Below, piece after piece: positions 28,895 to 62,068 of a stretch of 64,000 nucleotides of DNA. This DNA is from Deltaproteobacteria bacterium. Its GTDB lineage: Bacteria; Desulfobacterota; Syntrophorhabdia; Syntrophorhabdales; JANXAF01. Position 1 is the stretch's first letter. Each line of letters starts with the position of its first letter. The notes under the pieces are model-generated. The model had not been told where the DNA came from. It did not search any database and saw nothing but the letters and a program-made list of their open reading frames with translations. The stretch lies in contig JAOADT010000004.1 in the NCBI GenBank assembly GCA_026417175.1, positions 29,519 through 93,518 on the forward strand, given 5' to 3'. A program made the position numbers and the translations under genes.

Positions 28895-29764
28895 CTATAC
28901 CTTCTCTGCCACCCTTAGTTTCGCACTCCTTGATCTTGGATTTTTTAAGATTTCCTCCCTTTCTGGGGTAATTGGCTTTTTAGTTACAGGTTTTAAGGAA
29001 GACTCGTTCTTAAAAAACTCTTTCACAATCCTGTCTTCTACAGAGTGGAATGATATAACACCAATTTTGCCTCTTTTTTTGAGAATCCTACATGCATTAA
29101 CCAGTCCCATTTTTAGATTCTCCACTTCACGGTTGACCTCCATTCTTATTGCTTGAAAGGTTAATGTTGCAGGATGTACTCTTCCTTTTTTTCGTTTGGC
29201 TTTCTCTACAATTTCAGCCAGTTCTCTTGTTGTTTCGATATATTTGGTCTTTCTTCGGTTAACTATGGCTTTAGCTATACGAAGGGCCTCATTTTCATCT
29301 GAATTATTGCGAAGAATTTCTACCAATTTTGTCAACGGGTACCTATTTACGACATCATAGGCTGTAACTTCTTCCCTTATATCCATCCGCATGTCTAGAA
29401 ATTCGTCTTCTTGAAAACTAAATCCTCTTTTAGATCTAAGTTGGTATGAGGAGAGTCCAAGATCAAACAAAATTGCATCTACCATTTGGATTCCAATTTT
29501 TTGAAGAGCATTTGCCATATTCCTATAATTTTCCCTCAAGATAAAAACCCTATTGCCGAACTCTTTAAGCCTCTCCTTCGCAATCTCTAATTCATCTTCA
29601 TCCACATCAAAACCTACCACCTTGATTCTATCGAACCTTCTGAGAATTTCATAGGAATGCCCTCCTAGGCCCATTGTAGCATCCACAAAAACTTCCGTTT
29701 TCTCATCTACCAAGTTACAAATTGTCTCTTCAACGAGGACCGGGACATGGAGTACTTCGTCCAT
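28895..29764 (-). CDS. rsmH: 16S rRNA (cytosine1402-N4)-methyltransferase
   Basis: HVPVLVEE, DATMGLGGHS, DLGLSSYQL and FHSVEDRIVK. Confidence 0.95.
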   Translation of the reverse strand: MDEVLHVPVLVEETICNLVDEKTEVFVDATMGLGGHSYEILRRFDRIKVVGFDVDEDELEIAKERLKEFGNRVFILRENYRNMANALQKIGIQMVDAILFDLGLSSYQLRSKRGFSFQEDEFLDMRMDIREEVTAYDVVNRYPLTKLVEILRNNSDENEALRIAKAIVNRRKTKYIETTRELAEIVEKAKRKKGRVHPATLTFQAIRMEVNREVENLKMGLVNACRILKKRGKIGVISFHSVEDRIVKEFFKNESSLKPVTKKPITPEREEILKNPRSRSAKLRVAEKV

Positions 29765-30938: not shown

Positions 30939-31406
30939 CTAAAATTGATCTCTCTCGATCCTATTTAGGCTTTTAAGAACCGCACATAGAAGTTTAGGTA
31001 AATTTTCCTTTACATCCGGGGAAAGCTCCAATCCAATCTCCAGTGACCTCGGCTCTATACCAAAAATCTCGATTTTCGGACTTTTGCCCAAAAGCTCTGC
31101 TGCTCTTAAAACATCTAATATGGTAATTTCGTGGGCTGAGTTTCCGAAAGAGGCTGGGAGTTTGCAGAAGTCATCTATCTTGAAATGATATACGGTACCC
31201 GGTTTTTCGCCACCTTTTATCGCATCTATTATGATCAACCGATCCGCCTCACATATCACATCAAGTAACCCAAAACCAAGGGTTCCTCCATCCAAAATTT
31301 CTACATTTTCCGGGATTTTTTCCTTTAACAATTCCTTTACGGCGTGAACGCCAACCCCCTCATCCGTGAGAAGTATGTTACCTATACCTAATACGACAGT
31401 TTTCAT
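30939..31406 (-). CDS. [NiFe]-hydrogenase maturation endopeptidase (HyaD/HybD/HycI family)
   Basis: VLGIGNILLTDEGVGVHAV, LDGGTLGFGLLD, IIIDAIKGGEKPGTVY and GIEP motifs; 155 aa. Confidence 0.88.
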   Translation of the reverse strand: MKTVVLGIGNILLTDEGVGVHAVKELLKEKIPENVEILDGGTLGFGLLDVICEADRLIIIDAIKGGEKPGTVYHFKIDDFCKLPASFGNSAHEITILDVLRAAELLGKSPKIEIFGIEPRSLEIGLELSPDVKENLPKLLCAVLKSLNRIERDQF

Positions 31407-31601: not shown

Positions 31602-31697
31602 TGGCGGAAGTGCATGGGAATCGAACCCACCTACCAGCTTTTGGCCGGTACACTGGTTTTGAAGACCAGGAGGCCCACCAGGCGCCTTGGCACTTCC
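31602..31697 (-). tRNA. selC: tRNA-Sec (anticodon UCA), CCA encoded
   Basis: The reverse complement is GGAAGTGCCAAGGCGCCTGGTGGGCCTCCTGGTCTTCAAAACCAGTGTACCGGCCAAAAGCTGGTAGGTGGGTTCGATTCCCATGCACTTCCGCCA (96 nt). It has an 8-bp acceptor GGAAGTGC/GCACTTCC, an anticodon arm CTGGT-CTTCAAA-ACCAG, a long variable arm TACCGGC-CAAAA-GCTGGTA, and a 5-bp T arm with a TTCGATT loop, which gives the bacterial 8/5 Sec architecture. Confidence 0.92.
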
Positions 31698-33345: not shown

Positions 33346-36132
33346 ATGGGGAAGAAACCGAAAGAAATAAATCTTTTCGTGAATGGAAAGCGCTACAGCT
33401 TTTCTGTTGGTGAAAACAAGAACCAAGTTTCTCCGAATCATACCCTGGCCTATACGATTAGGGAAGTTATTGGATTGAAAGGAACAAAAATCTCATGCGA
33501 AAGCGGAGCTTGTGGTGCCTGTACAGTAATCATGGATGGAATCCCGGTCCTTTCTTGTATGCTTCTTACGGTTGAATGTAACGGGAAAAGCATTTTGACT
33601 ATAGAAGGACTAGAAAAAGACGGGAAACTAGATCCTGTTCAAGAGGCATTTATAAAACATTCGGCATTTCAGTGTGGATTTTGCACTCCAGGAATAATAA
33701 TGAGTTCAAAAGCTCTATTAACCCAAAACCCATCACCTTCTGATGAGGATATAAGACAAGCCCTATCCGGCCATTTTTGTAGATGCGTAAGCCACTATCA
33801 GGTCATAGACGCGGTGAAGGAAGCCTCCGGTAAAGCTGTAACAAAAAAAAGACTCCTGAGAGAAAAAACCGATAGCAAACTTAGTATCATAGGAAAAGAA
33901 ACCCACAGGACGGATGCGAAAAAAATAGTTACAGGAAAAGTTGAATATTTAAATGATCTTAGATTTGACAATCTCCTGTTTGGCAAGATTCTTAGAAGTT
34001 CTTATGCTCACGCCCTAATAAAAAAAATAGACGTATCAGAAGTAGAAAAAATGGATGGGGTAAAAGCTATCCTTACATGGGAAAATGTTCCAGATTTAAG
34101 AGGAGGTACTCCCAGATTTAAAAGAGCCCTCGATCAAAAAGTCCGGTTTGTTGGTGACGCGGTCGCTGTTGTAGCTGCAGAGAGTGAGGAACTCGCCGAG
34201 GAGGCTATCAGTAAGATAAGGGTGGATTATGAAGTGATTGATCCTGTTATTAAGCCAGAAAGTGCTTTGAAAAAAGGAGCACCTTCGCTTTATTTGGAGT
34301 TTCCGGAAAATGTGCTTCCCTCACATACCAACTTCTTTGGTCCTAAATCTCTAAAAGAACTAATTTTTGGAGACCCAGAGAAAGGTTTAAACGAGGCTGA
34401 TTGTATAATTGAAGACGAGTTTTCCTATAACGGCATTCCAAATCCCTTACCGGCTGAGTCCCCTGCTGTTATAGCTTTATGGGAAGACCCTAATCGACTC
34501 ACTCTTTGGACTTCAACTCAGGCACCTTATTTTGATAAATTGGTACTTTCTCGTATCTTCGGAAAAGAGATCAACATCCGAGTTATAAGTCCCACCTGTG
34601 GTGGAAGCTTCGGAAGCAAACTCATGTCTTGGCAATTGCAAGTTTTTGCCGCACTTCTAAGTAAGAAAACCGGGCATCCCGTTAAAGTTTCCTTGACAAA
34701 GGACGAACACCTTGCAACATTCACACTGAGGCCAGGTGTAAAGCTAAAAGGTAAAATAGGTATGAAGAAGGATGGAACCGTGACTGCCGTCTCAGGTGAT
34801 CTAATAATAGATACGGGATACTATTCATTTACCACCCAGGCACAGCTAGCTGTTGGGTTAGGGGAAGTTCAGATAATGCTCAGGTGTGAGAATTGGAATT
34901 TACGGCCAAAAATTGTGGTCACAAATAGAAATGCATCAGGAATAGTGAGAGGTTTCGGAGGACAAGAGATAAAGTGTGTTTTAATACCGCTTCTCTGTCG
35001 TGCAATGGAAAGGCTAAATATTGATCCCTTTGAATTCTTCAAAAAAAATTTTGTCAAGCCAGGTGATGGATATTACTGGAGAGATGGAAAATGGTATTCT
35101 TACAGAGGAGTAAATTACTCTAAAGCCATGGAAAAGGGGGCAACCATCTTTGGGTGGAGAAATAAGTGGAAGGGCTGGCTTAAGCCTACAAAAATAAATG
35201 GAAGCAAAAGAAGAGGGGTCGGTGTGGCAGTCCACGGCAATGCGGATGTGGGAGAGGACGTATCAGAAGCTTTTGTTTCATTACATCCAGAAGGGAGAGC
35301 TACAATTTTTTCCTGTATAACAGAACACGGCACAGGTCAGGTGAGTAACATAGTAAAAATGGTTGCCGAGGTTTTGGGCCTCAAAATAGAAGATATCAAT
35401 CTTTCACCTGCGGATTCTCTTGTTACGCCTTTTGAATTTGGTCCCGTGGGGTCAAGAGGTACATACGCCATAGGAAGCGCAACAATAGCTGCAGCTGAGA
35501 ATGCAAAACAAAAGCTTTTGAGGAAAGCTTCAAAGCTCTTTGGTGTTGATCCTGCAAAACTCGATACAAAAGATGGATTCGTTTACATTAAGGCCAATCC
35601 TCTAAAGAAAATACCTTGGCATAAGATAATCGGATGGGAAAAAACCTTATCTGGATACGGAAGATTTGAGGCAGATCATACACTCACTAATTGTATGATG
35701 AGCTTCGTTGAGGTCGAAGTGGACATTGATACGGGCGAGACCCAAATCATCGAGATTGTAAACGCGACTGACGTGGGTATGGTAATAGATCCAATGGGAC
35801 TTGAAGGTCAACTCAATGGCTGCTTGGGGTCTGCAGGAATAGATACGGCTATATTTGAGGAAACCGTGTTAGATAAAGGAACAGGAGTGATTTTGAACCC
35901 AAACATGATAGACTACAAATGGAGAACATTTGCTGAGCTCCCAGAGATAAAACACGTTGTACTTGAGACACCCTTTCCGACTCACAAGTTCCACGCAATA
36001 GGTGTAGGAGAGATTGCTACATCGCCTGGTCCTGCAGCCACATTTATGGCCATATGTAATGCGATAGGTACCTGGTTAAAAGAATATCCAGTTACTCCGG
36101 ACAAGATATTGGAGGCGGTAAAAGAAAAATGA
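33346..36132 (+). CDS. Xanthine dehydrogenase/aldehyde oxidase-family molybdenum hydroxylase, fused [2Fe-2S] + Moco-binding subunit
   Basis: N-terminal CESGACGACTV and QCGFCTPG...CRCVSHYQ (two 2Fe-2S sites), fused to an a/b-hammerhead and large Moco domain (GGSFGSK, GVGEIATSPGP); 928 aa. Confidence 0.88.
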   Translation: MGKKPKEINLFVNGKRYSFSVGENKNQVSPNHTLAYTIREVIGLKGTKISCESGACGACTVIMDGIPVLSCMLLTVECNGKSILTIEGLEKDGKLDPVQEAFIKHSAFQCGFCTPGIIMSSKALLTQNPSPSDEDIRQALSGHFCRCVSHYQVIDAVKEASGKAVTKKRLLREKTDSKLSIIGKETHRTDAKKIVTGKVEYLNDLRFDNLLFGKILRSSYAHALIKKIDVSEVEKMDGVKAILTWENVPDLRGGTPRFKRALDQKVRFVGDAVAVVAAESEELAEEAISKIRVDYEVIDPVIKPESALKKGAPSLYLEFPENVLPSHTNFFGPKSLKELIFGDPEKGLNEADCIIEDEFSYNGIPNPLPAESPAVIALWEDPNRLTLWTSTQAPYFDKLVLSRIFGKEINIRVISPTCGGSFGSKLMSWQLQVFAALLSKKTGHPVKVSLTKDEHLATFTLRPGVKLKGKIGMKKDGTVTAVSGDLIIDTGYYSFTTQAQLAVGLGEVQIMLRCENWNLRPKIVVTNRNASGIVRGFGGQEIKCVLIPLLCRAMERLNIDPFEFFKKNFVKPGDGYYWRDGKWYSYRGVNYSKAMEKGATIFGWRNKWKGWLKPTKINGSKRRGVGVAVHGNADVGEDVSEAFVSLHPEGRATIFSCITEHGTGQVSNIVKMVAEVLGLKIEDINLSPADSLVTPFEFGPVGSRGTYAIGSATIAAAENAKQKLLRKASKLFGVDPAKLDTKDGFVYIKANPLKKIPWHKIIGWEKTLSGYGRFEADHTLTNCMMSFVEVEVDIDTGETQIIEIVNATDVGMVIDPMGLEGQLNGCLGSAGIDTAIFEETVLDKGTGVILNPNMIDYKWRTFAELPEIKHVVLETPFPTHKFHAIGVGEIATSPGPAATFMAICNAIGTWLKEYPVTPDKILEAVKEK

Positions 36133-37100
36133 AAAAGTTCGAATACATTGAGGCTGAAGATCTAGAAGATCTTCTTTCCATATTATGGGATTTCAAAAAC
36201 GAAGCCAGGGTAATTGCCGGAGGGACTGACCTTTTATCCATTTTTAAGGACCAATACCTGTTATCGTATCCAAAACTGGTGGTAAACGCCAAACCTGTAA
36301 AAGAACTGGATTATGTCTACATTGAGGGCGGTATATTAAAAATTGGAGCCCTCACGAGACTATCAACACTTTTATCACACCCATTGGTCATTGAAAAATT
36401 TCCAATTATCAAAGAAGCAATAATGACTATAGCAACTCCGCAAATAAGGAACGTTGGAACTGTAGGTGGTAATCTTTGCCAGGATATAAGATGTTGGTAT
36501 TATAGATATCCTGCCAGACTTGGAGGCCCACTGATATGTTTAAGAAAGGGTGGAAAAACCTGTTTGGCCATAAGGGGTGACAATCGATACCACGCTTTGA
36601 TAGGAAAAAGGTGCTATGCCGTATGTCCTTCCGACTTGGCCATCGTACTTTGTTGTCTGAACGCAGAGATAATTGTGGTAAAAAAGAAAAATCAGAGAAA
36701 ACTTGATGTTCAGTCGCTTTATACGCCTTTAGGTCTGTCGCTTCAACCTGATGAAATTGTAAAGGAAATACAAGTGCCCTGTAACTACGGTTTTCGCCAG
36801 AGATTCATAAAATTCACAATTAGGAGACCTATAGATTTTGCAGTTCTCAGTTTAGCAGGCCAATTGAAATTTGAAAAAAAAGACTTAAGCAAGTGGATAA
36901 TAACCTTTGGGGGTATATCTTACCGACCTGAAGTAGTTGTTGTAACAAAATATTTTCAGAAAAATGAGAAAACAGTGGAAAAACTATTAGAGGAGATAGT
37001 AAGATCTGTGCTAGTTAAAGCGAAGCCACTCACGAAAAATGCTTACAAAATACCGTTACTAAAAGGTCTTTCAAGAAAACTGATTCACTCTCTTATGTAA
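36129..37100 (+). CDS. FAD-binding subunit of XDH-family enzyme with HcrB-like Cys-rich ([4Fe-4S]-type) insertion
   Basis: AGGTDLL FAD motif. GGNLCQDIRCWYYRYPARLGGPLICLRKGGKTCLAIRGDNRYHALIGKRCYAVCPSD (residues about 113-168). 323 aa, which is longer than the CoxM-type FAD-binding subunits as I recall them. ATGA-coupled to the large subunit. Confidence 0.8.
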   Translation: MKKFEYIEAEDLEDLLSILWDFKNEARVIAGGTDLLSIFKDQYLLSYPKLVVNAKPVKELDYVYIEGGILKIGALTRLSTLLSHPLVIEKFPIIKEAIMTIATPQIRNVGTVGGNLCQDIRCWYYRYPARLGGPLICLRKGGKTCLAIRGDNRYHALIGKRCYAVCPSDLAIVLCCLNAEIIVVKKKNQRKLDVQSLYTPLGLSLQPDEIVKEIQVPCNYGFRQRFIKFTIRRPIDFAVLSLAGQLKFEKKDLSKWIITFGGISYRPEVVVVTKYFQKNEKTVEKLLEEIVRSVLVKAKPLTKNAYKIPLLKGLSRKLIHSLM

Positions 37101-51337: not shown

Positions 51338-51867
51338 CTTTCCCAAACTTTCTCTCGGCTTTCAGACTTATTGGGACATTTTTCTTTCTTTTCTTTGTTA
51401 TCAGAGAAAGATATAACATAGCCTTTATCATATTTGTACTTCAAGGTCTAAGCGACTTGATGGATGGATTAATAGCTCGTACATTCAAGTCGAAGACAAC
51501 TGTTGGTGCATTTCTTGATCCATTGGCAGATAAGTTCATGCTTGTATCCTCATATCTTATCCTAACATATAAGAATATAATTCCCCAGTGGATAACCCTT
51601 CTTGTGGTGCTTAGAGATTCTTTTGTACTTTTAGGCTTTATTGTGCTTTATCGTATCTCAAACGAGAAAATTCCGCATCCCCGTGTTTTAGGTAAAGTTT
51701 GTACGGCAATACAAGCGATAACCATTGCTTACGTGCTTTGGTCAAAAGACGATAGGCTCCGACTTTTTTTCTTTTATCCCACCGTAATTTTAACCATTAC
51801 TTCGGGACTTGATTATCTGTTTGCAAGTCTCCGTCTTTTCGTAAGATATAAACCAATGAGGAGCTAA
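51334..51867 (+). CDS. CDP-alcohol phosphatidyltransferase (PgsA-like)
   Basis: SDLMDGLIARTFKSKTTVGAFLDPLADK motif; 177-aa membrane protein; ATGA overlap with dnaB. Confidence 0.8.
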   Translation: MTFPNFLSAFRLIGTFFFLFFVIRERYNIAFIIFVLQGLSDLMDGLIARTFKSKTTVGAFLDPLADKFMLVSSYLILTYKNIIPQWITLLVVLRDSFVLLGFIVLYRISNEKIPHPRVLGKVCTAIQAITIAYVLWSKDDRLRLFFFYPTVILTITSGLDYLFASLRLFVRYKPMRS

Positions 51868-53039
51868 ACCCCTTCTCTAATTTTGAATACTACAAAACTT
51901 ATTCCAATCACTGTGAGTCCTAATATTTTTATCCCAAGGGCAAAGCTAAGATAATCTCCAAAAAATCCGAGTATGTATGGCAAAACACCTATTCCTACCG
52001 CAGAAGCTATAGAAACTACAAAACCCATAGCAAATGCCCTTTTTTCAAGTGGAATAATTCTCGAACTCAAAACAAAACAGAGCGGAAACATCGCGGATAT
52101 TATGGTAGCTTGGACGAAGAGTATATACACCATAAAGTCCAGTGGGCAAATGGGTATAAAAAAAGTGAGAAACCCGGAGATAAAAAGAATGACAAACAGA
52201 ACTTTTTTAATGTCAAAAAAATCTAGCACAAATCCCACTAGAAACACGAAGAAAAACGAACCTATTCTTGAAAATCCAAGGACCTTTTGAGTAAAGGAAA
52301 TGTCAAACATAAGTTCCTTAGAAAGAAATAGAGGAAGGATGTAATAAAGGCCCATGTTAGCCCCTGCTGAAAAGATAAGAATGATACTTATTGCCCATAG
52401 AGTTCTATTTTTAACTATCTCGAAAAATATCTTCTTGGTATCCCCTTTTTCTACTTTTATTTCTTCTACTTCCCTCGTAATTAGATAAAAAACAAGGCTA
52501 AGAAACACAAAACAGAAACCTAAAAGAAGAAAAACACCACGCCAAGAAACGTATTTTAAAAGTTGATAAGCAATAAAAGGCGCTAATAGTATGCTAGCGG
52601 ATGCACCCGAATCATGAATAGGTATAACTTTCCCCCAAAGTTTTTCACTGTAAACTTTTGTTATTATGGATATAGCTGATGGCAGATACGTCCCAGCTGT
52701 GAAACCTAAAGCAAAAAGAAAAGGATAAAACAATAAAAAAACTTTGTTCTGTGAAAGAACCAAAAGAAAAAAGGCATTACATATAAATGAAAAAATAATC
52801 GATCTCTTGTGTCCAAGAGTATTTGAAAATATCCCCATGAGAAAGAGAGCAACCCCGTTTCCGATTGATATCGCAGCGAAAAGACCACCTGCAGCTGTGT
52901 GGGAAACACCGAATTCGTCTTCAAGTATGGGTGCAATCGGCGCAAGGATAGTCCGACATGTGAAATTCAAAAACCAAAATACCCAGAAGAGAAAGAGGTA
53001 GATTATTGATAGAGAATTAAAACGATCGAATGTTTTCAT
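51864..53039 (-). CDS. MFS transporter
   Basis: 391 aa with about 12 hydrophobic segments; the loop GIFSNTLGHKRS resembles the MFS motif A region. Confidence 0.8.
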   Translation of the reverse strand: MKTFDRFNSLSIIYLFLFWVFWFLNFTCRTILAPIAPILEDEFGVSHTAAGGLFAAISIGNGVALFLMGIFSNTLGHKRSIIFSFICNAFFLLVLSQNKVFLLFYPFLFALGFTAGTYLPSAISIITKVYSEKLWGKVIPIHDSGASASILLAPFIAYQLLKYVSWRGVFLLLGFCFVFLSLVFYLITREVEEIKVEKGDTKKIFFEIVKNRTLWAISIILIFSAGANMGLYYILPLFLSKELMFDISFTQKVLGFSRIGSFFFVFLVGFVLDFFDIKKVLFVILFISGFLTFFIPICPLDFMVYILFVQATIISAMFPLCFVLSSRIIPLEKRAFAMGFVVSIASAVGIGVLPYILGFFGDYLSFALGIKILGLTVIGISFVVFKIREGV

Positions 53040-53165: not shown

Positions 53166-53191
53166 GAAGAAAGGAAAGCTCAGACGGTTAA

Positions 53192-53200
53192 TGCTATAAT
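53192..53200 (+). promoter_or_regulatory. Extended -10 promoter element TGcTATAAT with no annotated gene downstream for about 300 nt
   Basis: Perfect TATAAT at 53195..53200 preceded by TG at 53192..53193. Confidence 0.4.
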
Positions 53201-53645
53201 GGAAATGGAACCTTACAACCAGATAAGATGTGATGTGCGCGAGGGAATACTAACCAATAATATCAAATATGGCTCTTAATAACAGAGTGTTACAAACTGG
53301 ATAAGTCATCTGAAATAAAGAAAGTTATGACCGTACTTAAATCCATCAGGGGAAGGTTATAATTCGTGTGGAGTAATTATAAGTTTAGCTGGGTAATCAC
53401 TGATTATCCCTCTTTTGAAATGGATTCATAGAGATGTATTTACTTAACTTTTTTTCTCTTAAATTCCGATGCATATGGTTGTATCCGGATAATTCAAAAG
53501 TAGAGAGAGAATAAAAATGAACAAGTTCATACCCTTGTGGAAACCTGAACTGATTTTGGAGGCAAGGATCGAATACACCGGTTTCAAAGTTTGGTACGAA
53601 AAGATCTACTTTAACAGGAAAGAATTTTTTCACATCCTAATCAAG

Positions 53646-53676
53646 GAGAACGGGAAAATTCGTGCTCATCTTTTTT
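53646..53676 (+). terminator. Terminator-like hairpin plus T6 tract
   Basis: GAGAACG (53646..53652), an 8-nt loop, then CGTGCTC (53661..53667) with one A.G mismatch, then ATC and TTTTTT (53671..53676). It lies inside the doubtful 127-aa ORF 53517..53900. Confidence 0.3.
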
Positions 53677-53963
53677 CGCTCATATCACCCAGGGTCCGTA
53701 GAGGTTATACTATCAGGCCTATTTTTTTCTCAAAAATATATAAAACATCTGGAATTACTATAGCTAACAAATCATGTAGTCCACTCACAAGGAAAAGGGA
53801 TGAGGAGGAATTTTCTATGAAGCACAATACTTTTTATCGAAGTTACAAAGGATGCCATCAAAGGAATATCTTTCATAACTTCGAAAAAGACAAAAGGTGA
53901 GATGAAGATAAAAAGTAATGCCTCTATCATACTCAAGCCTGGAGTTGTGAAATGTGGAGTATG

Positions 53964-53972
53964 TGCTAATAT
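53964..53972 (+). promoter_or_regulatory. Extended -10 element TGcTAATAT, candidate promoter of the iclR / Mo-enzyme operon
   Basis: Read directly; it ends 27 nt upstream of ATG 53999. Confidence 0.4.
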
Positions 53973-53998
53973 ATAGCTATTAAGTAAGCTAACTACCC

Positions 53999-54820
53999 AT
54001 GAATAGAAGAAAAACTTCTTCAAATTACACAAAAACAGTGCCAGCTGTTGATCAAGCATTGAAGATCCTTTTCTTTATGGCAAAAGATAAACACCCGAAG
54101 CTTTCACTTACGGAGATATGTAAAGGGGTAGGGATTCATAAGAGCAAGGGCTTCTCCATACTTAATACGCTTGCGAAATATGGACTGGTACAAAAAGATT
54201 CCGAGGACAAACAGTACGCGTTGGGATTAGGAATTCTTTCTCTGTCGAGGAAGGTTCTTGAGAATTTAGATTATAGAAGAATCGCCATGCCATATCTTGA
54301 GAAAATATCTAATTTGACAAAGGCAACTGCAATTTTTGGTGTCATTCTTGGAGAAGATTTATTCGTGGTGGCAAAAAAAGAACCGAAGAGCTCTGTACAC
54401 ATCACTATCCGCCTCGGCTACCGGTTTCACATAACTCATGGCGCCCATGGAAAAGCTATAGCTGCCTTTCTTGAAGAAAAAGAACTTTTATCTTTGATAA
54501 AAAAAAGAAAAACATATTTTTTTGGCAACCAGACAGTGCTAGATAAGGATAGGCTTATGTCAGAAATAAGAGAATGCCGAAAAAAGGGTTTCGCTTACGA
54601 CATAGGCGAACTTCATCCGGGTATCTCTGCTATTTCATCTCCTGTTTTCGACTCGAAAAACACTCCTATAGGTGTGCTGATAATACTCGGTACCTTAGAA
54701 AAAGAAAAGATGGAAGATTTCGGAAGGATAGTCCACGAGGCCGCACGGGATTTTTCCTTGGAGCTCGGTGCGGACTTAAAAAAGACTTACGAAAAATATG
54801 CAAATTTAGCAAGGGAGTGA
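53999..54820 (+). CDS. IclR-family transcriptional regulator
   Basis: N-terminal wHTH VPAVDQALKILFFMAKDKHPKLSLTEICKGVGIHKSKGFSILNTL and a C-terminal IclR effector domain (ISAISSPVF); 273 aa. Confidence 0.88.
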   Translation: MNRRKTSSNYTKTVPAVDQALKILFFMAKDKHPKLSLTEICKGVGIHKSKGFSILNTLAKYGLVQKDSEDKQYALGLGILSLSRKVLENLDYRRIAMPYLEKISNLTKATAIFGVILGEDLFVVAKKEPKSSVHITIRLGYRFHITHGAHGKAIAAFLEEKELLSLIKKRKTYFFGNQTVLDKDRLMSEIRECRKKGFAYDIGELHPGISAISSPVFDSKNTPIGVLIILGTLEKEKMEDFGRIVHEAARDFSLELGADLKKTYEKYANLARE

Positions 54821-54824
54821 AACA

Positions 54825-57251
54825 ATGAATCAGGAAGGGTTCCATATTATAAGAACAACTACCTGGTCCGCAGGACCGGGTTGCCACGGTGGATGTGGCG
54901 TTATTGCGTATGTAAAGGATGGAAAGTTGATTAAAGTAGAGGGAGATCCAGACCATCCGTGGAACCAGGGAAGGCTTTGTGCAAGGGCTTTAGCAATGAA
55001 ACAGTATGTTTATCATCCAAAAAGATTGAAAAAGCCTTTAGTAAGAAAAGGGCAGAGAGGAGAAGGAAAATGGGAGGAAGTTTCATGGGATTTCGCTTAT
55101 GACCTAATTGAAAAAAGGATGAAAAAGATCAGAGACGAGTTTGGTCCAGAAAGTTTTATCTTTGCGATGGGCACAGGTCGGGACATAGGCCCATGGATAT
55201 GTATGTTAGCTTATGCATACGGAAGTCCAAACGTCATGTTTGCCTTGAGTGGAAACGCTTGTTACAGTCCGCGCATAGCTGCACTAGATACGTTCCAAGG
55301 AGACTACTGTGTTTTCGATGCTGGTCAGTGGTTTGAGAAAAGATACGATGATCCAAGATTTGTTCGTCCAGAGTGTATGATTATATGGGGCTATAACATA
55401 CATTCTACCTGTCCGGATAACCTTTTTGGCCACTGGATCGTGGACTTGATGAAAAAGGGAACGAAAATAATTGTAGTTGATCCAAGACTAACATGGTTTT
55501 CTTCAAGGGCTGAAATTTGGCTCAGAGTTAGACCCGGTACTGATTCTGCGCTTGCCCTTGGTTTATTACATGTAATAGTAAAGGAGGAACTCTTCGATCG
55601 TACGTTTTTGGAAAGATGGACCAATGCCTTTTTACTTCTTCGAACTGACAAAAACGTGCTTTTACGCGAAAGTGATCTTATCCCGAACGGGAAACGTGAG
55701 AACTTTGTCGTATGGGATAAGAATTCTGAAAGAGTTGCTTTCTGGGATACAGAAAAACTTGAATTTAGGCCGGCTTCTACTACCCCCTCCTTTTCGTGCG
55801 AGATTGATCTCGCATGTGTAGACGGAAATACAGTTCGATGCCACACGGTATGGGATGCATTCAGAAAAAGAGTAATGGAATATGATCCTTCCACTGTTGA
55901 GAAGATAACAGGTGTTCCCAAAGAAGATGTAATCAGAGCCGCAAGAATGTATGCAAAAAGTAAACCTGCCTCCATTCATTGGGGAGTGCCAATAGATATG
56001 ACACCTAATGTTACACCTCTTTGTCACGCAATTGCTTGTCTTTGGGCTCTCACTGGGAATTTGGATGTGCCGGGCGGAAATGTTGTGGCCCGTTTTGCTT
56101 TTGACGCTGTGGCATATGCCCTCCCAGGGGCTGAAGGTATAATACGCCTCAAATCGAAAGAGCAGGATATACCTAGAATCGGAAGGGAAAAATACGGACC
56201 TTTCCAAAAATTTATCTGGAGATGTCAGACTGATACCGCCTTTGAGCAGATATTTTCCGAAAAACCTTATCCAATTAAGGGAATGTGGATACAGACGTTA
56301 AATCCCTTGGCCGGCATAGGCATGGATCCAAAAAGGTGGAGAGAGGCTCTTCTCAAAATGGATTTCGTAGTGGGTGTTGATCTTTTCATGACTCCGACGC
56401 TTATGTACGCAGACGTAATTTTGCCGGCAGCGACCTTCCTTGAAAAGGAAGGGATAAGATCCTGGTGGGTTCCACTACAGAGCATAAACAAAGCCTTAAC
56501 AGTAGACGAATGTAAATCCGATGCTGAGATAAACTTTGAGCTAGCTAAGAGATTTGATCCTGAATTCAGATGGAAATCTTTGGAGGAACTATTTGATGAA
56601 ATCATAAAACCCTCAGGCCTAACTTACAAGGAATTAAAAGAAAGAGTGTGGGTTTTACCGACTGAGGGACACCCAAGTCATCCGTACTTGCGTCACGAAA
56701 AAGGTCTTTTAAGAAAAGATAGAAAGCCTGGTTTCCAAACACCAACGGGAAGATTTGAACTCTATTCAGTCTTGAGAGAGGAATGGGGTTACGAACCGCT
56801 TCCCATTCATGAAGAGCCACCTTTCACGCCTGTTTCTAGGCCAGACCTTACAAAGGATTATCCGTTGATACTCTCAACGGGAAGAAGGTCTCCGGCTTAT
56901 TTCCATTCGGAACATAGGATGATACCGTGGCTGAGAAGTATAGACCCAGATCCGGTCGTAGAAGTACATCCCAATACCGCAAAAAAATACGGGATTGCCG
57001 ATGGAGAATGGGTATACGTAGAAAACTGGATGGGGAAGGCAAAATTTAGGGCAAAAGTAACACCCATTGTACCCGAATGGATGGTCATGGCAACCCATGG
57101 TTGGTGGTTTCCTGAGAAAAATCCAGAGGAACCCGAACTTTTCGGAGTTTGGGAGTCTAATATTAATCTTCTAATCCCCATGGGTCAACACGGAAAAGAT
57201 GGACTCGGTGCACCCATAAAACATTTGCTGTGCAAAATTTATAGAGCTTAG
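54825..57251 (+). CDS. Cytoplasmic molybdopterin/tungstopterin (bis-PGD) oxidoreductase, catalytic subunit, acetylene-hydratase-like clade, substrate unknown
   Basis: 808 aa with no twin-arginine signal. N-terminal FeS region WSAGPGCHGGCGVIAYVKDGKLIKVEGDPDHPWNQGRLCAR. Putative metal-ligand region SGNACYSPR. The C-terminal third (DYPLILSTGRR...DPDPVVEVHPNTAKKYGIADGEWVYVEN...GAPIKHLLCKIYRA) aligns by eye with the acetylene hydratase C-terminus. Confidence 0.85.
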   Translation: MNQEGFHIIRTTTWSAGPGCHGGCGVIAYVKDGKLIKVEGDPDHPWNQGRLCARALAMKQYVYHPKRLKKPLVRKGQRGEGKWEEVSWDFAYDLIEKRMKKIRDEFGPESFIFAMGTGRDIGPWICMLAYAYGSPNVMFALSGNACYSPRIAALDTFQGDYCVFDAGQWFEKRYDDPRFVRPECMIIWGYNIHSTCPDNLFGHWIVDLMKKGTKIIVVDPRLTWFSSRAEIWLRVRPGTDSALALGLLHVIVKEELFDRTFLERWTNAFLLLRTDKNVLLRESDLIPNGKRENFVVWDKNSERVAFWDTEKLEFRPASTTPSFSCEIDLACVDGNTVRCHTVWDAFRKRVMEYDPSTVEKITGVPKEDVIRAARMYAKSKPASIHWGVPIDMTPNVTPLCHAIACLWALTGNLDVPGGNVVARFAFDAVAYALPGAEGIIRLKSKEQDIPRIGREKYGPFQKFIWRCQTDTAFEQIFSEKPYPIKGMWIQTLNPLAGIGMDPKRWREALLKMDFVVGVDLFMTPTLMYADVILPAATFLEKEGIRSWWVPLQSINKALTVDECKSDAEINFELAKRFDPEFRWKSLEELFDEIIKPSGLTYKELKERVWVLPTEGHPSHPYLRHEKGLLRKDRKPGFQTPTGRFELYSVLREEWGYEPLPIHEEPPFTPVSRPDLTKDYPLILSTGRRSPAYFHSEHRMIPWLRSIDPDPVVEVHPNTAKKYGIADGEWVYVENWMGKAKFRAKVTPIVPEWMVMATHGWWFPEKNPEEPELFGVWESNINLLIPMGQHGKDGLGAPIKHLLCKIYRA

Positions 57252-57265
57252 GAAAGGAGAATAAG

Positions 57266-57607
57266 ATGAACGAGAAAGAAGTTCATGGGATGTTGATAGA
57301 CTATGAATATTGCACAGGATGTCATACTTGCGAAGTAGCATGTGCTCAGGAATACAACTGGGAAGAGGGAGTTTCGGGGATGAAAGTTATAGAAATCGTA
57401 GAGAAACTTCCAAATGATAGATATTATCTCGTGTACCTCCCATTTCCAACGGAAGCATGTTCCCTATGCATAGGGAGAGTGAAGAAAGGCATGGAACCAC
57501 AATGTGTAAAGCACTGTATGGCTAAATGTTTAGAATTCGGGCCAGTAGAGAATCTCCTAGAAAAAATGAAAGGAAAAAAGAGGACTGTTCTTTTTAGGCC
57601 TAGATAA
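57266..57607 (+). CDS. Small 4Fe-4S ferredoxin-type subunit (half-size DmsB/PsrB-like beta subunit)
   Basis: 113 aa with CTGCHTCEVAC (CxxCxxCxxxC) and CSLC-x11-CVKHC. Starts 14 nt after the catalytic subunit. Confidence 0.8.
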   Translation: MNEKEVHGMLIDYEYCTGCHTCEVACAQEYNWEEGVSGMKVIEIVEKLPNDRYYLVYLPFPTEACSLCIGRVKKGMEPQCVKHCMAKCLEFGPVENLLEKMKGKKRTVLFRPR

Positions 57608-57620
57608 GAGCATAGAGGTT

Positions 57621-59177
57621 TTAATTTCTTAATCTATACCGAATAAGCTTGCCTGTTGTAGTCCTTGGAAGGTCACTTACAAAAGACACCCACTTAGGTG
57701 TTTTAAAATGAGCTGTCCTATTCTTTACGTGTTCGATGATTTCTTTTTCTAATTTTTCATCTGGCGTATATCCTTCATTTAGAACTACAAATGCCTTTAT
57801 CCTTAAGAGTCCTTCCTCCGAAGGAACTCCGACTACCCCACATTCCCTAACCGCGGGATGTCCCATTATTATGTTTTCTATCTCAATTGGCGAAACCCAC
57901 TGTCCGCTAACCTTTAGCATGTCGTCAGCTCGACCCTGATAATAAAAATATCCATCTTCGTCCATTAAGAATAGATCACCTGTATTAAACCATTCACCTT
58001 TTATTACCTCCTTATTTTTATCGTGTCTTCTCCAATAACCGGGGGTAACACCGTCGTTTTTAATCCATAATGTACCCACGCTTCCTTTGGGTACAGGTTT
58101 GAAATTTTCGTCTCTTAATTCTGCTTCAAATCCCGGGATGATTTTTCCGCTTGCTCCAGGCTTTTTCCGACCTTCTACATTAGCCATATAAATACCGCCT
58201 ACGTCCGTACTCCCCACCCCATCTATTATTTCGATTCCAAAAATCTTCTCCCACCTTTCGAAAACCTCCTTAGGAAGAGGTTCACCTGCAGAAATACATG
58301 TTCTAAGTGACGAAAAATCACACTTTTCTCTTTTTTCTATTTCTTTTAACAACGATATATAAAAAGTAGGAACACTGAATAGAACCGTTGGTTTTTTGGT
58401 TTCGATTATCTCTATGATCTCCTGAGGTTTCGGCCATTTTGGCCAAAGTATCACTGAGGCTCCATAAAGAAGAGGTATTTCAAGTGATGCATTTCTTCCA
58501 TATGAGAAAAACATTTTGGATGTTGCAAATATGAGATCTTTTTCTCTTATTCCAAGAATGTACTCGGAAAAAGGTGGTATGTAGTAAATAATATCGTGAT
58601 GGAGGTGAACTACGGCCTTTGGAAGCCCTGTTGTACCTGAAGTATACATCCAGAATGCCATATCATCCTTTGATGTGGGTTCTGTCTCAAGAATTGAAGA
58701 AGAGGCGTGTAAAAGCTCCGAATAACTCAGAGTTTCTTTCTTAGGTTCTCCTACAACTACCACGTGTTTCAGAAAAGGAACTTCATTCCTTAAGTCTTTT
58801 AACTTTTCGTAAAGTTCTGACTCTATAAATAGGACCTTTGCCCTTGAATCTTTAAGAAAAAAAAGATAATCCTTGGGAGAGGCCAACGTATTTACAGGGA
58901 TAGGTATTGCTCCGATCTTCATTGTCCCGAGGTAGGTAGCCACGAATTCTGGCGAATCGTTAAGAACGATAAGAACCCGGTTTTCTGGTTCTATACCGAT
59001 GTTCTTCAAGGCATTTCCCAGTTTATTTGCCATCATGTGCAAATTCTCGTAGGTTATAATATCATTCCCATAGACAATTGCCTGATTTTTCCCTCTTTTT
59101 TCCTTGATGTGTCTTTCGAGAAGAACTTCTACCTGGTTAAAAATCTCTGGTACTTCGAAACCTATAAGTGAGATCAC
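57621..59177 (-). CDS. Aryl-CoA ligase of the benzoate / 4-hydroxybenzoate-CoA ligase family (AMP-forming)
   Basis: P-loop YTSGTTGLPKAVVHLHHD. The N-terminal pattern NQVEVLLERH...GKNQAIVYGNDIITYENLHMMANKLGNALKNIGIEPENRV...DSPEF...GTMKIGAIPIPVNT is typical of the benzoate-CoA ligase family. C-terminal PRTTTGKL. Confidence 0.8.
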   Translation of the reverse strand: MISLIGFEVPEIFNQVEVLLERHIKEKRGKNQAIVYGNDIITYENLHMMANKLGNALKNIGIEPENRVLIVLNDSPEFVATYLGTMKIGAIPIPVNTLASPKDYLFFLKDSRAKVLFIESELYEKLKDLRNEVPFLKHVVVVGEPKKETLSYSELLHASSSILETEPTSKDDMAFWMYTSGTTGLPKAVVHLHHDIIYYIPPFSEYILGIREKDLIFATSKMFFSYGRNASLEIPLLYGASVILWPKWPKPQEIIEIIETKKPTVLFSVPTFYISLLKEIEKREKCDFSSLRTCISAGEPLPKEVFERWEKIFGIEIIDGVGSTDVGGIYMANVEGRKKPGASGKIIPGFEAELRDENFKPVPKGSVGTLWIKNDGVTPGYWRRHDKNKEVIKGEWFNTGDLFLMDEDGYFYYQGRADDMLKVSGQWVSPIEIENIIMGHPAVRECGVVGVPSEEGLLRIKAFVVLNEGYTPDEKLEKEIIEHVKNRTAHFKTPKWVSFVSDLPRTTTGKLIRYRLRN

Positions 59178-59186
59178 CTTGACTCC

Positions 59187-60488
59187 TTACTTCACAAAAG
59201 ATGGGAGAAATGTAGCAATTGGCGGATAAAATAGAATTATGATTGAGGCAACTATCATAGCAACCAGAAATGGAAAAATACCTTTAAAAATCTGTTCGAG
59301 AGGAACCTCTTTCGCTATCCCTTTAATTACGTAAACGTTCACTCCAACAGGAGGTGTAATAACCCCCATACAGGTAACAAGCACGATAATAACACCAAAC
59401 CATATGGGATCGTAGCCTAGATGCAACACTATCGGAAAAAGTATGGGAATGGTAAGTATGATAAGGGGTATAGCATCTATGAAACAACCGCCGATTAAGT
59501 AAATGAAAATAATAATCAACATGATCAAATATGGTGGAACCTGTAAAGAAGACACCCAACTTGAAATCATGACAGGAATTTTAGAAACGGTTATAAAACG
59601 TCCAAAAACAGTTGCGCAAGCAATGATTGTCAAGATCATACAAGAAGTTCTTAGCGCTTCCCGAGTATTCTGTACAAAAGAATCCCATGTAATCTCTCTT
59701 CTTATGAGGCCAAGGATAAGTGCGCCGGCCGCACCTATACCTCCTGCTTGCGTAGGCGTAAAAAAGCCAAATAAAAGCCCTCCTACAACCAGCACAAAAA
59801 GTCCAACAGCATCGAGAATTTTAAGACAAGCGACAACCTTTTCTTTGAAAGTCGATTTTTCTCCTTCTGGGCCGTAGGACGGATTTCGATAGCATATAAT
59901 TAAGACTGCTACACTCATGAGGGTGGCAAGAAGAATACCTGGAAGAATACCAGATATGAAAAGCTTTCCTATGGATTGTTCGGTCATGAAACCATAAATG
60001 AGAAATATAACACTAGGAGGTATAAGTATCCCTAAGCTTCCAGCCGAAGCAATACATCCGGTAGCTAAGGTATCATCATATCCGTATTTCTTCATGGCTG
60101 GTAGGGCAAGCTTGCCCATCGTGGCAGCCGTTGCAGTTGAAGAACCACATATAGCACCAAAAGCAGCGCAGGCAAATATAGAAGCTATCGCTAGACCACC
60201 TTTTATATGTCCGAACACTTTATAAGCTGCATCGTAAAGTCTCGAGCCGAGACCTGCCGAGAAAGCGTAATATCCCATGAGAATAAACATGGGGATTGCG
60301 CTTATGGAATACGACGTAAGTTGTTCGAATATGTTCCTTGGAAGAACTGCTAATCCTGTTTTTAACGAAGTCACATAAGAAAATCCCACAAACCCAACAA
60401 ATGCCATAGAAAAAGCAATCGGCATCCTTATTACAAAAAATGCGACAAGAATTACAATTCCCAAAATTCCTGCCATTTCAGGACTCAT
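59187..60488 (-). CDS. TRAP transporter large permease (DctM)
   Basis: 433-aa polytopic membrane protein, immediately downstream of the small permease with a 4-nt overlap. Confidence 0.88.
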   Translation of the reverse strand: MSPEMAGILGIVILVAFFVIRMPIAFSMAFVGFVGFSYVTSLKTGLAVLPRNIFEQLTSYSISAIPMFILMGYYAFSAGLGSRLYDAAYKVFGHIKGGLAIASIFACAAFGAICGSSTATAATMGKLALPAMKKYGYDDTLATGCIASAGSLGILIPPSVIFLIYGFMTEQSIGKLFISGILPGILLATLMSVAVLIICYRNPSYGPEGEKSTFKEKVVACLKILDAVGLFVLVVGGLLFGFFTPTQAGGIGAAGALILGLIRREITWDSFVQNTREALRTSCMILTIIACATVFGRFITVSKIPVMISSWVSSLQVPPYLIMLIIIFIYLIGGCFIDAIPLIILTIPILFPIVLHLGYDPIWFGVIIVLVTCMGVITPPVGVNVYVIKGIAKEVPLEQIFKGIFPFLVAMIVASIIILFYPPIATFLPSFVK

Positions 60489-60967
60489 CTTTTCATCCTC
60501 ACGTTTTTTACTAATTCAATAATGTAATACAGAATTACAGGAACCAAGCTTATGGCGAACGCATACGCTAAGGGATAAAGCGGTAATTTTAAGACAGAAC
60601 CCATTTCGCCTGATATCTGCAAAGATTTAGCATACTTTAGTCCGTAAATGAATAAAATAAAGAATAACGTGAGACAACAGAGAGATACAAAAGTGTCCAG
60701 AATTTTTTTGATCGAAAAAGGTAATTTATCCGCAATAAACTCAATTTTAAGATGAGTTCCAAGGTAAAGACCGAAAGCAATTGCGAAAGATATGGCTACA
60801 ACCTGAGCAAAACTTATTATTTCTAAAGCCCCGGGCAGGGGCCATCCAAAAAATTTTGCACCTACAACATCAACAAGGTTAGCAAAAAACATTACCAGGA
60901 AAAAAATGGCCCCTATCCCTTCTAGATATCTACTTATATTTCGCGTGAGTTTATCGAGCCCTTCCAT
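60485..60967 (-). CDS. TRAP transporter small permease (DctQ)
   Basis: 160 aa with four hydrophobic helices, lying between the DctP and DctM genes. Confidence 0.85.
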   Translation of the reverse strand: MEGLDKLTRNISRYLEGIGAIFFLVMFFANLVDVVGAKFFGWPLPGALEIISFAQVVAISFAIAFGLYLGTHLKIEFIADKLPFSIKKILDTFVSLCCLTLFFILFIYGLKYAKSLQISGEMGSVLKLPLYPLAYAFAISLVPVILYYIIELVKNVRMKR

Positions 60968-60994
60968 CGGAAATTCCTTATCTTATTGATCTCT

Positions 60995-62068
60995 TTATTT
61001 GATCCTTACCTCGTCAGGACCCGTTGTCGATTTTATTTTTAGCTCCTTCTGTCGTTTGGTCCAATAGTCTATCCTTTCTTTTACAAACGAGATCCAACCT
61101 CTCACTTCCTTTTCCGGATACCCTGCAGAAACCATCGATTTTACGTACTTTTCGATAACTGTCTCTGCCGCCTTGATCCATCTCTTTTCTTCTTCAGGGG
61201 ACAACGTAATGAACTGAATCCCTTTCTCCTTCCCTAACTGTTTTCCATCTATATCAATTTCGTTCCACATTGTGGCTAGCTTTTCCTCAAAGGGATACTC
61301 ATTGAAGACTTTCTTCACATCGTCAGGAAGCTTCTTCCAAGTCTCTTTATTCATAACAATGTAAAAGTTATACTGTTGTCCTATACCCCAACACTCGGTT
61401 GTGTATTTTATGACTTCAGCAAACCTAAATGCTCTATACGTCTCCATTGGGATGTAGACACCGTCAACCACTTTTTTGAGAATCGCATCATAAGTTTCAG
61501 GTGTCGCTAGTCCCCTAGGGGTTGCTCCGAGTGCAGCAACAGTGTCCGCAATGTACCCAACAGCTCTAATATTTAGACCTTTTAAATCCTCAAGTTTATA
61601 AACCGGCTTTGTTGCGGTCATCATCACGTTTATTGGAGAGCTATGTAAGGTGATCACTTGCACATCATCCCATTCCTTCGGCTTAAACTTCCTATAAAAG
61701 TCATTAACTACGCGGTTTGATACCCATGCATTCGGAAAACCCAAAGGCATGTCCAAAACTTCTGTCACTTTGAATCTACCTGGCGTATAAGCTATGTGGG
61801 AAAACCCTATGTCCGCAATACCTTCAACAACACCATCGTACATTTTAGCCGGACTCAGAAGGGTTCCTGCAGCAAAGTAACTGAATTTTACTTTGCCACC
61901 AGTTCTTGCTTCAAGATCTTTTATGAACTCCTCACATATTTTCGATTGTCTAGCAACTACGGGAAAGTAATTGGCCCATTTGAGTTCGATAGCCGGGGCT
62001 GAAAGGACGGTTTTAGAAAAAAGCAAAAGTGAAGTGATCATAAATAGCAACATACCCAATTTTTTCAT
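60995..62068 (-). CDS. TRAP transporter periplasmic solute-binding protein (DctP family)
   Basis: Signal peptide MKKLGMLLFMITSLLLFSKTVLSA; ELKWANYFP...GGKVKFSYFAAGTLL is typical of DctP-type SBPs. Confidence 0.85.
   Translation of the reverse strand: MKKLGMLLFMITSLLLFSKTVLSAPAIELKWANYFPVVARQSKICEEFIKDLEARTGGKVKFSYFAAGTLLSPAKMYDGVVEGIADIGFSHIAYTPGRFKVTEVLDMPLGFPNAWVSNRVVNDFYRKFKPKEWDDVQVITLHSSPINVMMTATKPVYKLEDLKGLNIRAVGYIADTVAALGATPRGLATPETYDAILKKVVDGVYIPMETYRAFRFAEVIKYTTECWGIGQQYNFYIVMNKETWKKLPDDVKKVFNEYPFEEKLATMWNEIDIDGKQLGKEKGIQFITLSPEEEKRWIKAAETVIEKYVKSMVSAGYPEKEVRGWISFVKERIDYWTKRQKELKIKSTTGPDEVRIK

Follow-up and report, generated by a model that had tools for sequence, protein, structure and literature searches.

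A cytoplasmic candidate reductive dehydroxylase related to Gordonibacter enzymes, encoded beside an aryl-CoA ligase and a TRAP transporter in a Desulfobacterota-type bacterium

To our knowledge, almost all catechol dehydroxylases known so far come from Actinobacteria of the human gut. These molybdenum-dependent enzymes come in two architectures: those of Eggerthella (Dadh, Cadh and Hcdh) are exported through the twin-arginine translocation (Tat) pathway and anchored in the membrane, and those of Gordonibacter (Cldh and Dodh) are smaller, have no Tat signal, lie beside a small 4Fe-4S protein and major facilitator superfamily (MFS) transporters, and are thought to be soluble (PMC7028382). Gp Hcdh (770 aa, two subunits) and Eadh1-3 have been described alike (PMC11585353; PMC12771579), and the known enzymes are described as taking off the para hydroxyl (PMC11887054). 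Here, we analysed a seven-gene module in a 64-kb window (the whole stretch of DNA under study, positions 29,519 to 93,518 of contig JAOADT010000004.1) from an environmental Desulfobacterota-type bacterium. The module is built around a catalytic subunit with a bis(molybdopterin guanine dinucleotide) (bis-MGD) cofactor, here called alpha, followed by a small FeS subunit, beta. Sequence comparison places alpha almost certainly with the Gordonibacter-type enzymes Cldh and Dodh.

This placement was obtained with the reference sequences of Cldh, Dodh, Dadh, acetylene hydratase (AH), an AH-like Desulfococcus protein and a Psr-like outgroup, all taken from the supplement alignment of PMC7028382. In BLASTP, alpha scored 592 bits against Cldh and 586 against Dodh, compared with 302 against AH, 296 against Dadh and 120 against the Psr-like protein. 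Its identity to Cldh and Dodh ranges from 38 to 49% (for Cldh, 49% over the N-terminal half and 40% over the C-terminal half), and stands at 28% to Dadh and 26-31% to AH; in that paper's own table, Cldh and Dodh are 45% identical to each other and Cldh and AH 26% (PMC7028382). A neighbour-joining phylogeny of 70 sequences, each representing a 50%-identity cluster and aligned with MAFFT before trimming, set the clade of the window protein beside Cldh and Dodh and apart from AH and Dadh. The clade was monophyletic in 99 of 100 bootstrap replicates (38 taxa), and its union with Cldh and Dodh, to the exclusion of AH and Dadh, was recovered in all 100. An earlier sequence-only reading of this DNA had pointed, for alpha, to the acetylene-hydratase and catechol-dehydroxylase side of the dimethyl sulfoxide reductase superfamily, and the BLASTP scores, the tree and the lack of both Tat signal and anchor bear it out.

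The N-terminus of alpha, MNQEGFHIIRTTTWS, has no RR motif and carries neither a Tat nor a Sec signal, and beta has no such signal either, so that the description of the enzyme as cytoplasmic, already given in that reading, is justified by sequence. The block holds no membrane anchor gene, and alpha contains no selenocysteine codon. No NCBIfam model passes its cut-off for alpha: the best is PhsA, with 281 bits against a cut-off of 694, followed by the formate dehydrogenase alpha subunit with 264 bits, and TtrA reaches 79 against 1750. Alpha has therefore no curated name. That PhsA and formate dehydrogenase head the list, and that some database records of this group are named "dimethylsulfide dehydrogenase" or "selenocysteine-containing dehydrogenase", could suggest a formate dehydrogenase or a Psr/Phs/Ttr/Nap-like reductase of inorganic oxyanions of sulfur, nitrogen or selenium. 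We consider this effectively refuted, given scores far below the cut-offs, the 120 bits of the Psr-like protein against about 590 for Cldh and Dodh, and a position far from these enzymes in the tree; alpha does not nest among the oxyanion reductases. Both identities were rejected as candidates for alpha, with no Tat signal, no anchor gene, no selenocysteine codon and low scores.

The motifs of alpha follow the same relationship. Its N-terminal cluster motif reads RTTTWSAGPGC20-H21-GGC24...C52, in general form TxWSxGPGC-Hx-GC, and the same arrangement is found in Cldh (TTMWSGPGCHEGC) and Dodh (TSVWTGPGCHNGC). Compared with the usual C-x2-C-x3-C motif, the first Cys is lost and four residues (SAGP) are inserted, whereas AH and Dadh keep four Cys. 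Among 58 clade members examined, the motif is invariant in the 57 that cover this stretch. The predicted metal ligand is C146, within LSGNACYSPR, and the pattern C-x-x-P-R is common to alpha, Cldh (CMLPR), Dodh (CYQPR) and Dadh (CKGPR) but not to AH (CIGNT); like the cluster motif, it does not vary within the clade (57-58 members). Residues 270-343 form an insertion of about 70 aa that is absent from AH, Cldh and Dodh and homologous to the one in Dadh and Cadh (WTNA-PFLV...LLKESD...FLVYD, after the WTNA motif), so it looks ancestral rather than new.

The FS0 site of alpha has only three Cys (C20, C24 and C52), together with the invariant His21. It may hold a [3Fe-4S] cluster or use a fourth ligand other than Cys, and we found no comment on a three-Cys FS0 motif in the papers that we consulted.

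Beta has nine Cys, eight of them in the groups C16-x2-C19-x2-C22-x3-C26 and C65-x2-C68-x11-C80-x3-C84. Towards the N-terminus it resembles the first Cys group of ArrB, a four-cluster beta subunit, and towards the C-terminus the last Cys group of FdnH and PsrB. Its layout is that of the first and last groups in the superfamily's four-cluster subunits, and two [4Fe-4S] clusters are predicted.

By sequence, the closest solved protein to alpha is AH (267.7 bits). Foldseek with the AlphaFold2 model of alpha (predicted local distance difference test score 83, predicted template-modelling score 0.88) also returned AH (2e7z) as nearest in the PDB, with a template-modelling score of 0.86 and 26% identity, and otherwise only generic family members. 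A true acetylene hydratase was nevertheless rejected as an identity for alpha: the position of the catalytic Asp13 of AH, next to the cluster ligand Cys12, is taken by the invariant His21, the cluster motif lacks its first Cys, and alpha has a beta partner.

The clade itself is tight and distinct. A word-indexed search with alpha returned 6,623 homologues at E <= 1e-20, of which the best 120 are 68-100% identical to it and about 813 aa long; these come mostly from metagenome-assembled genomes of Desulfobacterota, with some labelled Chloroflexi/Dehalococcoidales, and from Desulfonema magnum. Other clade members are labelled Acidobacteriota and Hyphomicrobiales, and identity within the clade is at least 62%. 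In an exhaustive search of 50%-identity representatives, one scored 1346 bits (67%) and the next 755 bits (49%), followed by many clusters at 35-45%, a drop that marks the clade off from its neighbours. A homologue 34% identical to alpha and nearly full length is also present in a Candidatus Bathyarchaeia metagenome-assembled genome (locus L057), which means that the wider dehydroxylase-like group reaches Archaea.

The clade has been seen before. A sequence from Desulfobacula toluolica Tol2, 66% identical to alpha over its full length, stands in the alignment and tree of putative dehydroxylases published in 2020 (Figure 7 of PMC7028382), so the clade was already listed among the "putative dehydroxylases" of environmental aromatic degraders. 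The module had earlier been called uncharacterised, and this applies to the gene set, for which we found no described pathway, but not to the enzyme family, which the Tol2 homologue shows to have been recognised.

Other chemistry on an aromatic or indolic acid, such as addition of water, hydroxylation, oxidation of a side chain or reduction of another group, has to be weighed against dehydroxylation. The nearest solved structure is a hydratase, the clade is a 50%-identity cluster of its own, iorA, the gene for the alpha subunit of an indolepyruvate:ferredoxin oxidoreductase, lies in the operon of the closest relatives, the nearest solved relatives of the solute-binding protein DctP probably bind indole acids, and the best solved relative of the ligase in the module is an anthranilate-CoA ligase. 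We nonetheless judge such chemistry unlikely. The catalytic Asp of AH is replaced, AH works without a beta subunit, the dedicated two-cluster electron-transfer subunit indicates redox catalysis, and in both the tree and the motifs the clade sides with the dehydroxylases rather than with AH. Where the sequence-only reading had left hydroxylation, dehydroxylation and hydration side by side, the position next to Cldh and Dodh and the motifs shared with them favour reductive dehydroxylation over the other two.

Set beside the described systems, the window enzyme resembles the Gordonibacter type most closely, sharing the bis-MGD cofactor, the absence of a Tat signal, a length of about 770-800 aa, a small 4Fe-4S partner, the lack of an anchor, a nearby MFS gene and regulator, and the WSxGPGCHxGC and CxxPR motifs at 38-49% identity. 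It differs from that type in its regulator (IclR instead of LuxR-type), in its host (an environmental Desulfobacterota-type bacterium instead of gut Actinobacteria), in keeping the insertion that Cldh and Dodh are without and Dadh and Cadh have, and in being coupled to an aryl-CoA ligase and a tripartite ATP-independent periplasmic (TRAP) transporter, a coupling more suggestive of catabolism than of a terminal electron sink. The Eggerthella type (Dadh, Cadh and Hcdh) has in common with alpha the CxxPR pattern, a homologous insertion and, presumably, para-dehydroxylation of catechols; unlike alpha, its members are about 1000-1200 aa long, Tat-exported, and equipped with a four-cluster subunit, a membrane anchor and a four-Cys FS0. 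AH from Pelobacter acetylenicus is likewise cytoplasmic, with a Cys metal ligand and an N-terminal FeS domain, and is the nearest solved structure, but it is a non-redox monomer without beta, with Asp13, a four-Cys motif and no CxxPR.

The list of open reading frames of the window reproduced every coordinate, the gene order and the gaps that had been given for the module. Its features, in window coordinates, are:

53999-54820, plus strand: IclR-family transcriptional regulator (Pfam IclR_C, E 1e-28, plus HTH_IclR)
54825-57251, plus strand: alpha, catalytic bis-MGD (Mo or W) subunit, 808 aa (Pfam Molybdop_Fe4S4, Molybdopterin and Molydop_binding)
57266-57607, plus strand: beta, small electron-transfer FeS subunit, 113 aa (two ferredoxin-type Cys groups)
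57621-59177, minus strand: aryl-CoA ligase of the benzoate-CoA ligase family, 518 aa, GTG start (AMP-binding, E 8e-82; TIGR02262)
59187-60488, minus strand: DctM, TRAP large permease (Pfam DctM, E 3e-103; TIGR00786, 355.8 against a cut-off of 268)
60485-60967, minus strand: DctQ, TRAP small permease (Pfam DctQ, E 6e-19)
60995-62068, minus strand: DctP, TRAP periplasmic solute-binding protein (Pfam DctP, E 3e-42; NF037995, 93 versus 50)
51864-53039, minus strand: MFS transporter, divergent from the module (Pfam MFS_1, E 2e-39)
53170-54003, no strand: AT-rich replacement segment, including the doubtful orf127 (53517-53900), in place of the relatives' iorA

All seven module genes gave strong full-length profile matches and are not chance open reading frames. 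The gap is 4 nt between iclR and alpha and 14 nt between alpha and beta; the stops of beta and the ligase converge across 13 nt, the ligase being the last gene of a dctP-dctQ-dctM-ligase operon in which dctQ and dctM overlap by 4 nt. The whole block is one insert between housekeeping genes, with queA-tgt-yajC-rpsF-rpsR-rplI-dnaB-pgsA on one side and tsaC-bamE on the other. Within the module (54000-62000), G+C is 0.39-0.43, compared with 0.35-0.39 in the adjoining housekeeping DNA, and the insertion lies between pgsA and tsaC; this would fit either a gain of the block in one piece or limits on the base composition of genes for conserved enzymes. Promoter and terminator scans of the module gave results at or below chance, and no riboswitch was found near it.

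We propose that the block serves to import a phenolic or catecholic aromatic acid, to dehydroxylate it reductively with an inducible enzyme and to pass it on to CoA-dependent degradation, a proposal that we hold to be evenly balanced between right and wrong. In this scheme, the TRAP system, possibly together with the MFS protein, would import a hydroxylated aromatic carboxylic acid, and the IclR protein would make the module substrate-inducible. Alpha/beta would then strip a ring hydroxyl from a catecholic or phenolic acid, for example protocatechuate, 3,4-dihydroxyphenylacetate or hydrocaffeate, at a molybdenum or tungsten centre ligated by Cys146. A low-potential donor would supply the electrons, which would travel by way of the two [4Fe-4S] clusters in beta and the three-Cys cluster in alpha. 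The less hydroxylated acid would be converted by the ligase to a CoA thioester and enter a benzoyl-CoA-type pathway encoded elsewhere. The placement of alpha, its shared motifs, the Gordonibacter-like architecture, the regulator and transporter neighbours and the Tol2 homologue in the published tree argue for such a role, as does the aromatic-acid context, namely the TIGR02262 match of the ligase, solved relatives of DctP that probably bind aromatic or indole acids, a second clade context with a CoA ligase and TRAP transporter, and an enzyme resembling 4-hydroxybenzoyl-CoA reductase 18 kb upstream (the last two are described below).

The ligase passes the benzoate-CoA ligase model TIGR02262 with 505.9 bits (cut-off 375.25), its residues 12-518 aligning to positions 2-507 of the 508 in the model. 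The second-best NCBIfam model, the equivalog NF053567 for the 3-hydroxybenzoate-CoA ligase HbdA, gave 439.3 bits, below its cut-off of 1000. Among solved proteins, the closest are an anthranilate-CoA ligase (4wv3, 415 bits) and benzoate-CoA ligases (2v7b, 378; 4eat, 333), all aligning over the full length, and the family predicted from the sequence alone is thereby confirmed. Within this family (BCL, HbdA, AuaEII), the substrate of the window ligase cannot be assigned. Para-dehydroxylation of protocatechuate would yield 3-hydroxybenzoate, which would fit a 3-hydroxybenzoate-type ligase, although this is conjecture.

The TRAP set, a carboxylate transporter, is complete, a single operon encoding DctP (signal peptide MKKLGMLLFMITSLLLFSKTVLSA), DctQ and DctM. 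Among solved structures, DctP is most closely related to the Desulfovibrio-type solute-binding proteins 4n6d, 4pgn/4pgp and 4nap, followed by 7nr2/7nra. The 4n6d/4pgn/4nap group probably binds indole acids, and 7nr2/7nra probably come from work on lignin-derived aromatic acids. In general terms, TRAP solute-binding proteins are described as binding indole acids, in a review, and lignin aromatics. The ligase, DctP, the relatives' iorA and the xanthine-oxidase-family enzyme upstream give weak clues to the substrate.

Whether the ligase and transporter belong with alpha/beta was assessed through a neighbourhood analysis of 63 loci from species-representative genomes, with five loci added by exact protein. 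The ligase and TRAP genes lie beside alpha-beta only in one syntenic lineage, comprising the window (100% alpha identity), L068 (87%), L001 (82%) and L065 (81%), all with the same dnaB-pgsA ... tsaC synteny. Co-conservation is consequently real but phylogenetically shallow: the two operons are kept together in four related genomes, as the sequence-only reading would have it, but only in one narrow lineage, which makes this weak. It is possible, though fairly unlikely, that the adjacency is incidental, so that IclR-alpha-beta (plus the MFS gene) is self-contained and dctPQM-ligase is an unrelated operon for uptake and activation of a benzoate-type acid, an explanation compatible with the enzyme assignment. 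The two sets converge as distinct transcription units, IclR-alpha-beta turns up widely in loci that have neither this ligase nor this TRAP system, and ligase homologues of at most 63% identity (62-63%) occur away from alpha/beta, next to glyoxalase-family genes. The arrangement has nevertheless persisted through gain or loss of iorA and iclR, the block is a single insert, and a non-homologous ligase and TRAP transporter have joined alpha-beta independently in another subgroup; the first and last of these favour a functional link.

The gain or loss of iorA can be followed in these relatives. In L068 (3339-5156) and L065 (14169-15989), the two closest relatives with iclR, iorA (TIGR03336, 703.7 versus 650.9) separates the MFS gene from iclR, is oriented like iclR and has no adjoining iorB; L001 has neither iorA nor iclR. 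DNA homology between the window and L068 ends at 53169 and resumes at 54004, and about 830 bp of unrelated AT-rich DNA replaces iorA. No iorA remnant was found in the window, and orf127 (127 codons) has no homologues. As part of the operon in the closest relatives, iorA might connect the module with arylpyruvate metabolism or supply reduced ferredoxin as electron donor.

The same dehydroxylation could also take place on a CoA thioester, with the ligase acting first (for example to give protocatechuyl-CoA or gentisyl-CoA) and alpha/beta being the long-sought dehydroxylating aryl-CoA reductase. Activities that dehydroxylate protocatechuyl-CoA and gentisyl-CoA have been reported in Thauera, Desulfobacterium and Syntrophus with no genes assigned, and we found no literature assigning genes to them. 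A benzoate-family ligase converging on alpha/beta in four syntenic genomes, and a CoA ligase beside alpha/beta in another clade context, speak for this order of events. We regard it as distinctly improbable: TBLASTN with the window ligase detected an AMP-binding ligase within 10 kb in only 14 of about 56 alpha loci (including the two most distant, L057 and L060), Desulfonema magnum has just IclR-MFS-alpha-beta in that order with no ligase nearby, and the characterised relatives all take free small molecules as substrates. The free acid is the more economical substrate, since a nearby ligase is missing from most members of the clade. An earlier analogy with the action of PadBCD on an aryl-CoA finds no support; by its published description PadBCD is a membrane-bound enzyme of three subunits, whereas here the enzyme is soluble and has two. 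The earlier interpretation of the locus therefore holds in part, for the branch of alpha and the family of the ligase, but not for the PadBCD analogy or for broad co-conservation of the operons.

Beta lies directly 3' of alpha in every locus where the contig continues, and at least 14 other loci have an orthologous IclR gene (about 40% identity) immediately 5' of alpha. The window IclR passes no NCBIfam model, the top ones being BhcR (113 bits) and the PcaR/PcaU/PobR family (97 bits). A Pfam count over 138 neighbours, taken out to about 2.6 kb, was headed by regulators, with IclR (9), PAS/histidine kinase (8-9), MarR (7) and sigma-54 activators (4), and by transporters, and no constant catabolic partner of alpha/beta emerged, only regulators and transporters. 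Several genomes carry two or more alpha paralogues. This pattern, in which alpha-beta resembles an inducible unit devoted to one substrate and equipped with a regulator and an importer, is the one described for the gut dehydroxylases.

A second conserved context is found in L036, L042-L045 and L056, and partly in L040 and L052. There, MarR and a PaaI-type thioesterase are divergent from alpha-beta, and downstream lie an old-yellow-enzyme-type enoate/dienoyl-CoA reductase, a CoA ligase (26% identical to the window ligase), a 600-aa acyl-CoA dehydrogenase, DctPQM and a 3-hydroxyacyl-CoA dehydrogenase. This set looks like side-chain beta-oxidation of a phenylpropanoid-type acid. In a third recurrent context, alpha-beta is followed by a Liv-type ABC system. 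The MFS gene is syntenic beside the module in all close relatives (L001, L065 and L068; 65-73% identity); its product scores 47.5 bits against the aromatic acid/H+ symporter model TIGR00895, far below the cut-off, and is a possible second importer or product exporter.

Nine Desulfobacula-type loci (L009, L010, L011, L013, L014, L020, L022, L027 and L048) carry a tandem alpha-beta-alpha'-beta', with alpha' 57-59% identical to the window alpha; in most Desulfobacula-type loci the tandem stands behind IclR. In several of the tandem loci the flanking genes encode aconitase, an NAD-malic enzyme and a small multihaem cytochrome c of class III, unusual neighbours for a cytoplasmic enzyme.

Several points weigh against the proposed dehydroxylase role. 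An identity of 38-49% to characterised enzymes does not fix the chemistry of alpha, and those enzymes come from gut Actinobacteria with LuxR-type regulators, not IclR. The link between alpha/beta and the ligase and TRAP genes rests on one vertically related lineage, and the operons, being convergent, are not co-transcribed. Members of the clade are at least 62% identical across very different neighbourhoods and could share one common substrate that is not of the benzoate type. The relatives' iorA and the probably indole-acid-binding relatives of DctP point to an arylpyruvate or arylacetate, which is awkward with a benzoate-family ligase. A soluble cytoplasmic reductase, moreover, conserves no energy by itself.

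Further metabolic clues lie elsewhere in the window. On the plus strand at 33346-37100, 18 kb upstream of the module, a xanthine-oxidase-family molybdoenzyme is encoded by genes for a 928-aa subunit with a fused N-terminal domain for two [2Fe-2S] clusters and a 323-aa FAD subunit. The best NCBIfam match of the FAD subunit is 4-hydroxybenzoyl-CoA reductase beta (152.8 bits, full length, below cut-off), and its Cys-rich insertion (C117, C122, C137, C145, C162 and C166) resembles the extra [4Fe-4S] loop of that enzyme. It is possibly another reductive dehydroxylase and is consistent with phenolic-acid catabolism in this organism. 4-Hydroxybenzoyl-CoA reductase is a functional analogue of the proposed alpha/beta enzyme, being the classical anaerobic phenolic dehydroxylase, which acts on a CoA ester after a benzoate-family ligase; it differs in belonging to an unrelated molybdenum superfamily, with a molybdopterin cytosine dinucleotide cofactor and FAD and 2Fe-2S subunits. 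A tRNA-Sec gene (31602-31697, minus strand; Rfam 70.5 bits, ARAGORN anticodon tca) adjoins a gene for a HycI-type hydrogenase maturation protease (30939-31406, minus strand). The organism therefore uses selenocysteine, and alpha itself has Cys.

The enzyme class, the cytoplasmic two-subunit architecture and environmental homologues, including a member of this clade (2020), were already known. The present analysis adds an explicit assignment of the clade to the side of the Gordonibacter type, the three-Cys and CxxPR signatures that the two share, and the pairing of alpha/beta with a benzoate-family ligase, a TRAP transporter and, in relatives, iorA. The literature that we consulted on links between AH-like enzymes and benzoate-CoA ligase or TRAP genes, on anaerobic benzene degradation (PMC4033198, PMC13416013) and on protocatechuate dehydroxylation contained nothing on the alpha clade. 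The predicted function is homology-based; cultured carriers of the clade are Desulfobacula toluolica Tol2 and Desulfonema magnum, and a heterologous host for the enzyme class, Gordonibacter urolithinfaciens, has been published (PMC11887054).

If true, the proposal would place the cytoplasmic type of dehydroxylase in the aromatic-acid catabolism of a sulfate-reducer-like bacterium, in the sequence of import, dehydroxylation and CoA activation. Reductive dehydroxylation of the protocatechuate type was described biochemically in anaerobes decades ago and, as far as we know, has never been tied to a gene. More speculatively, and in our judgement rather doubtfully, the clade might hold the gene still missing for this step in anaerobes, acting on protocatechuate-type acids or on their CoA esters, and might be a major sediment enzyme with a previously unexamined three-Cys FS0 cluster. 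This would give genes to an old biochemical activity and define a major route by which catechols from lignin and tannins reach the benzoyl-CoA pathway in anoxic sediments. In sediment metagenomes the clade seems to be abundant, and its function would bear on the anoxic breakdown of phenolic plant and algal carbon.

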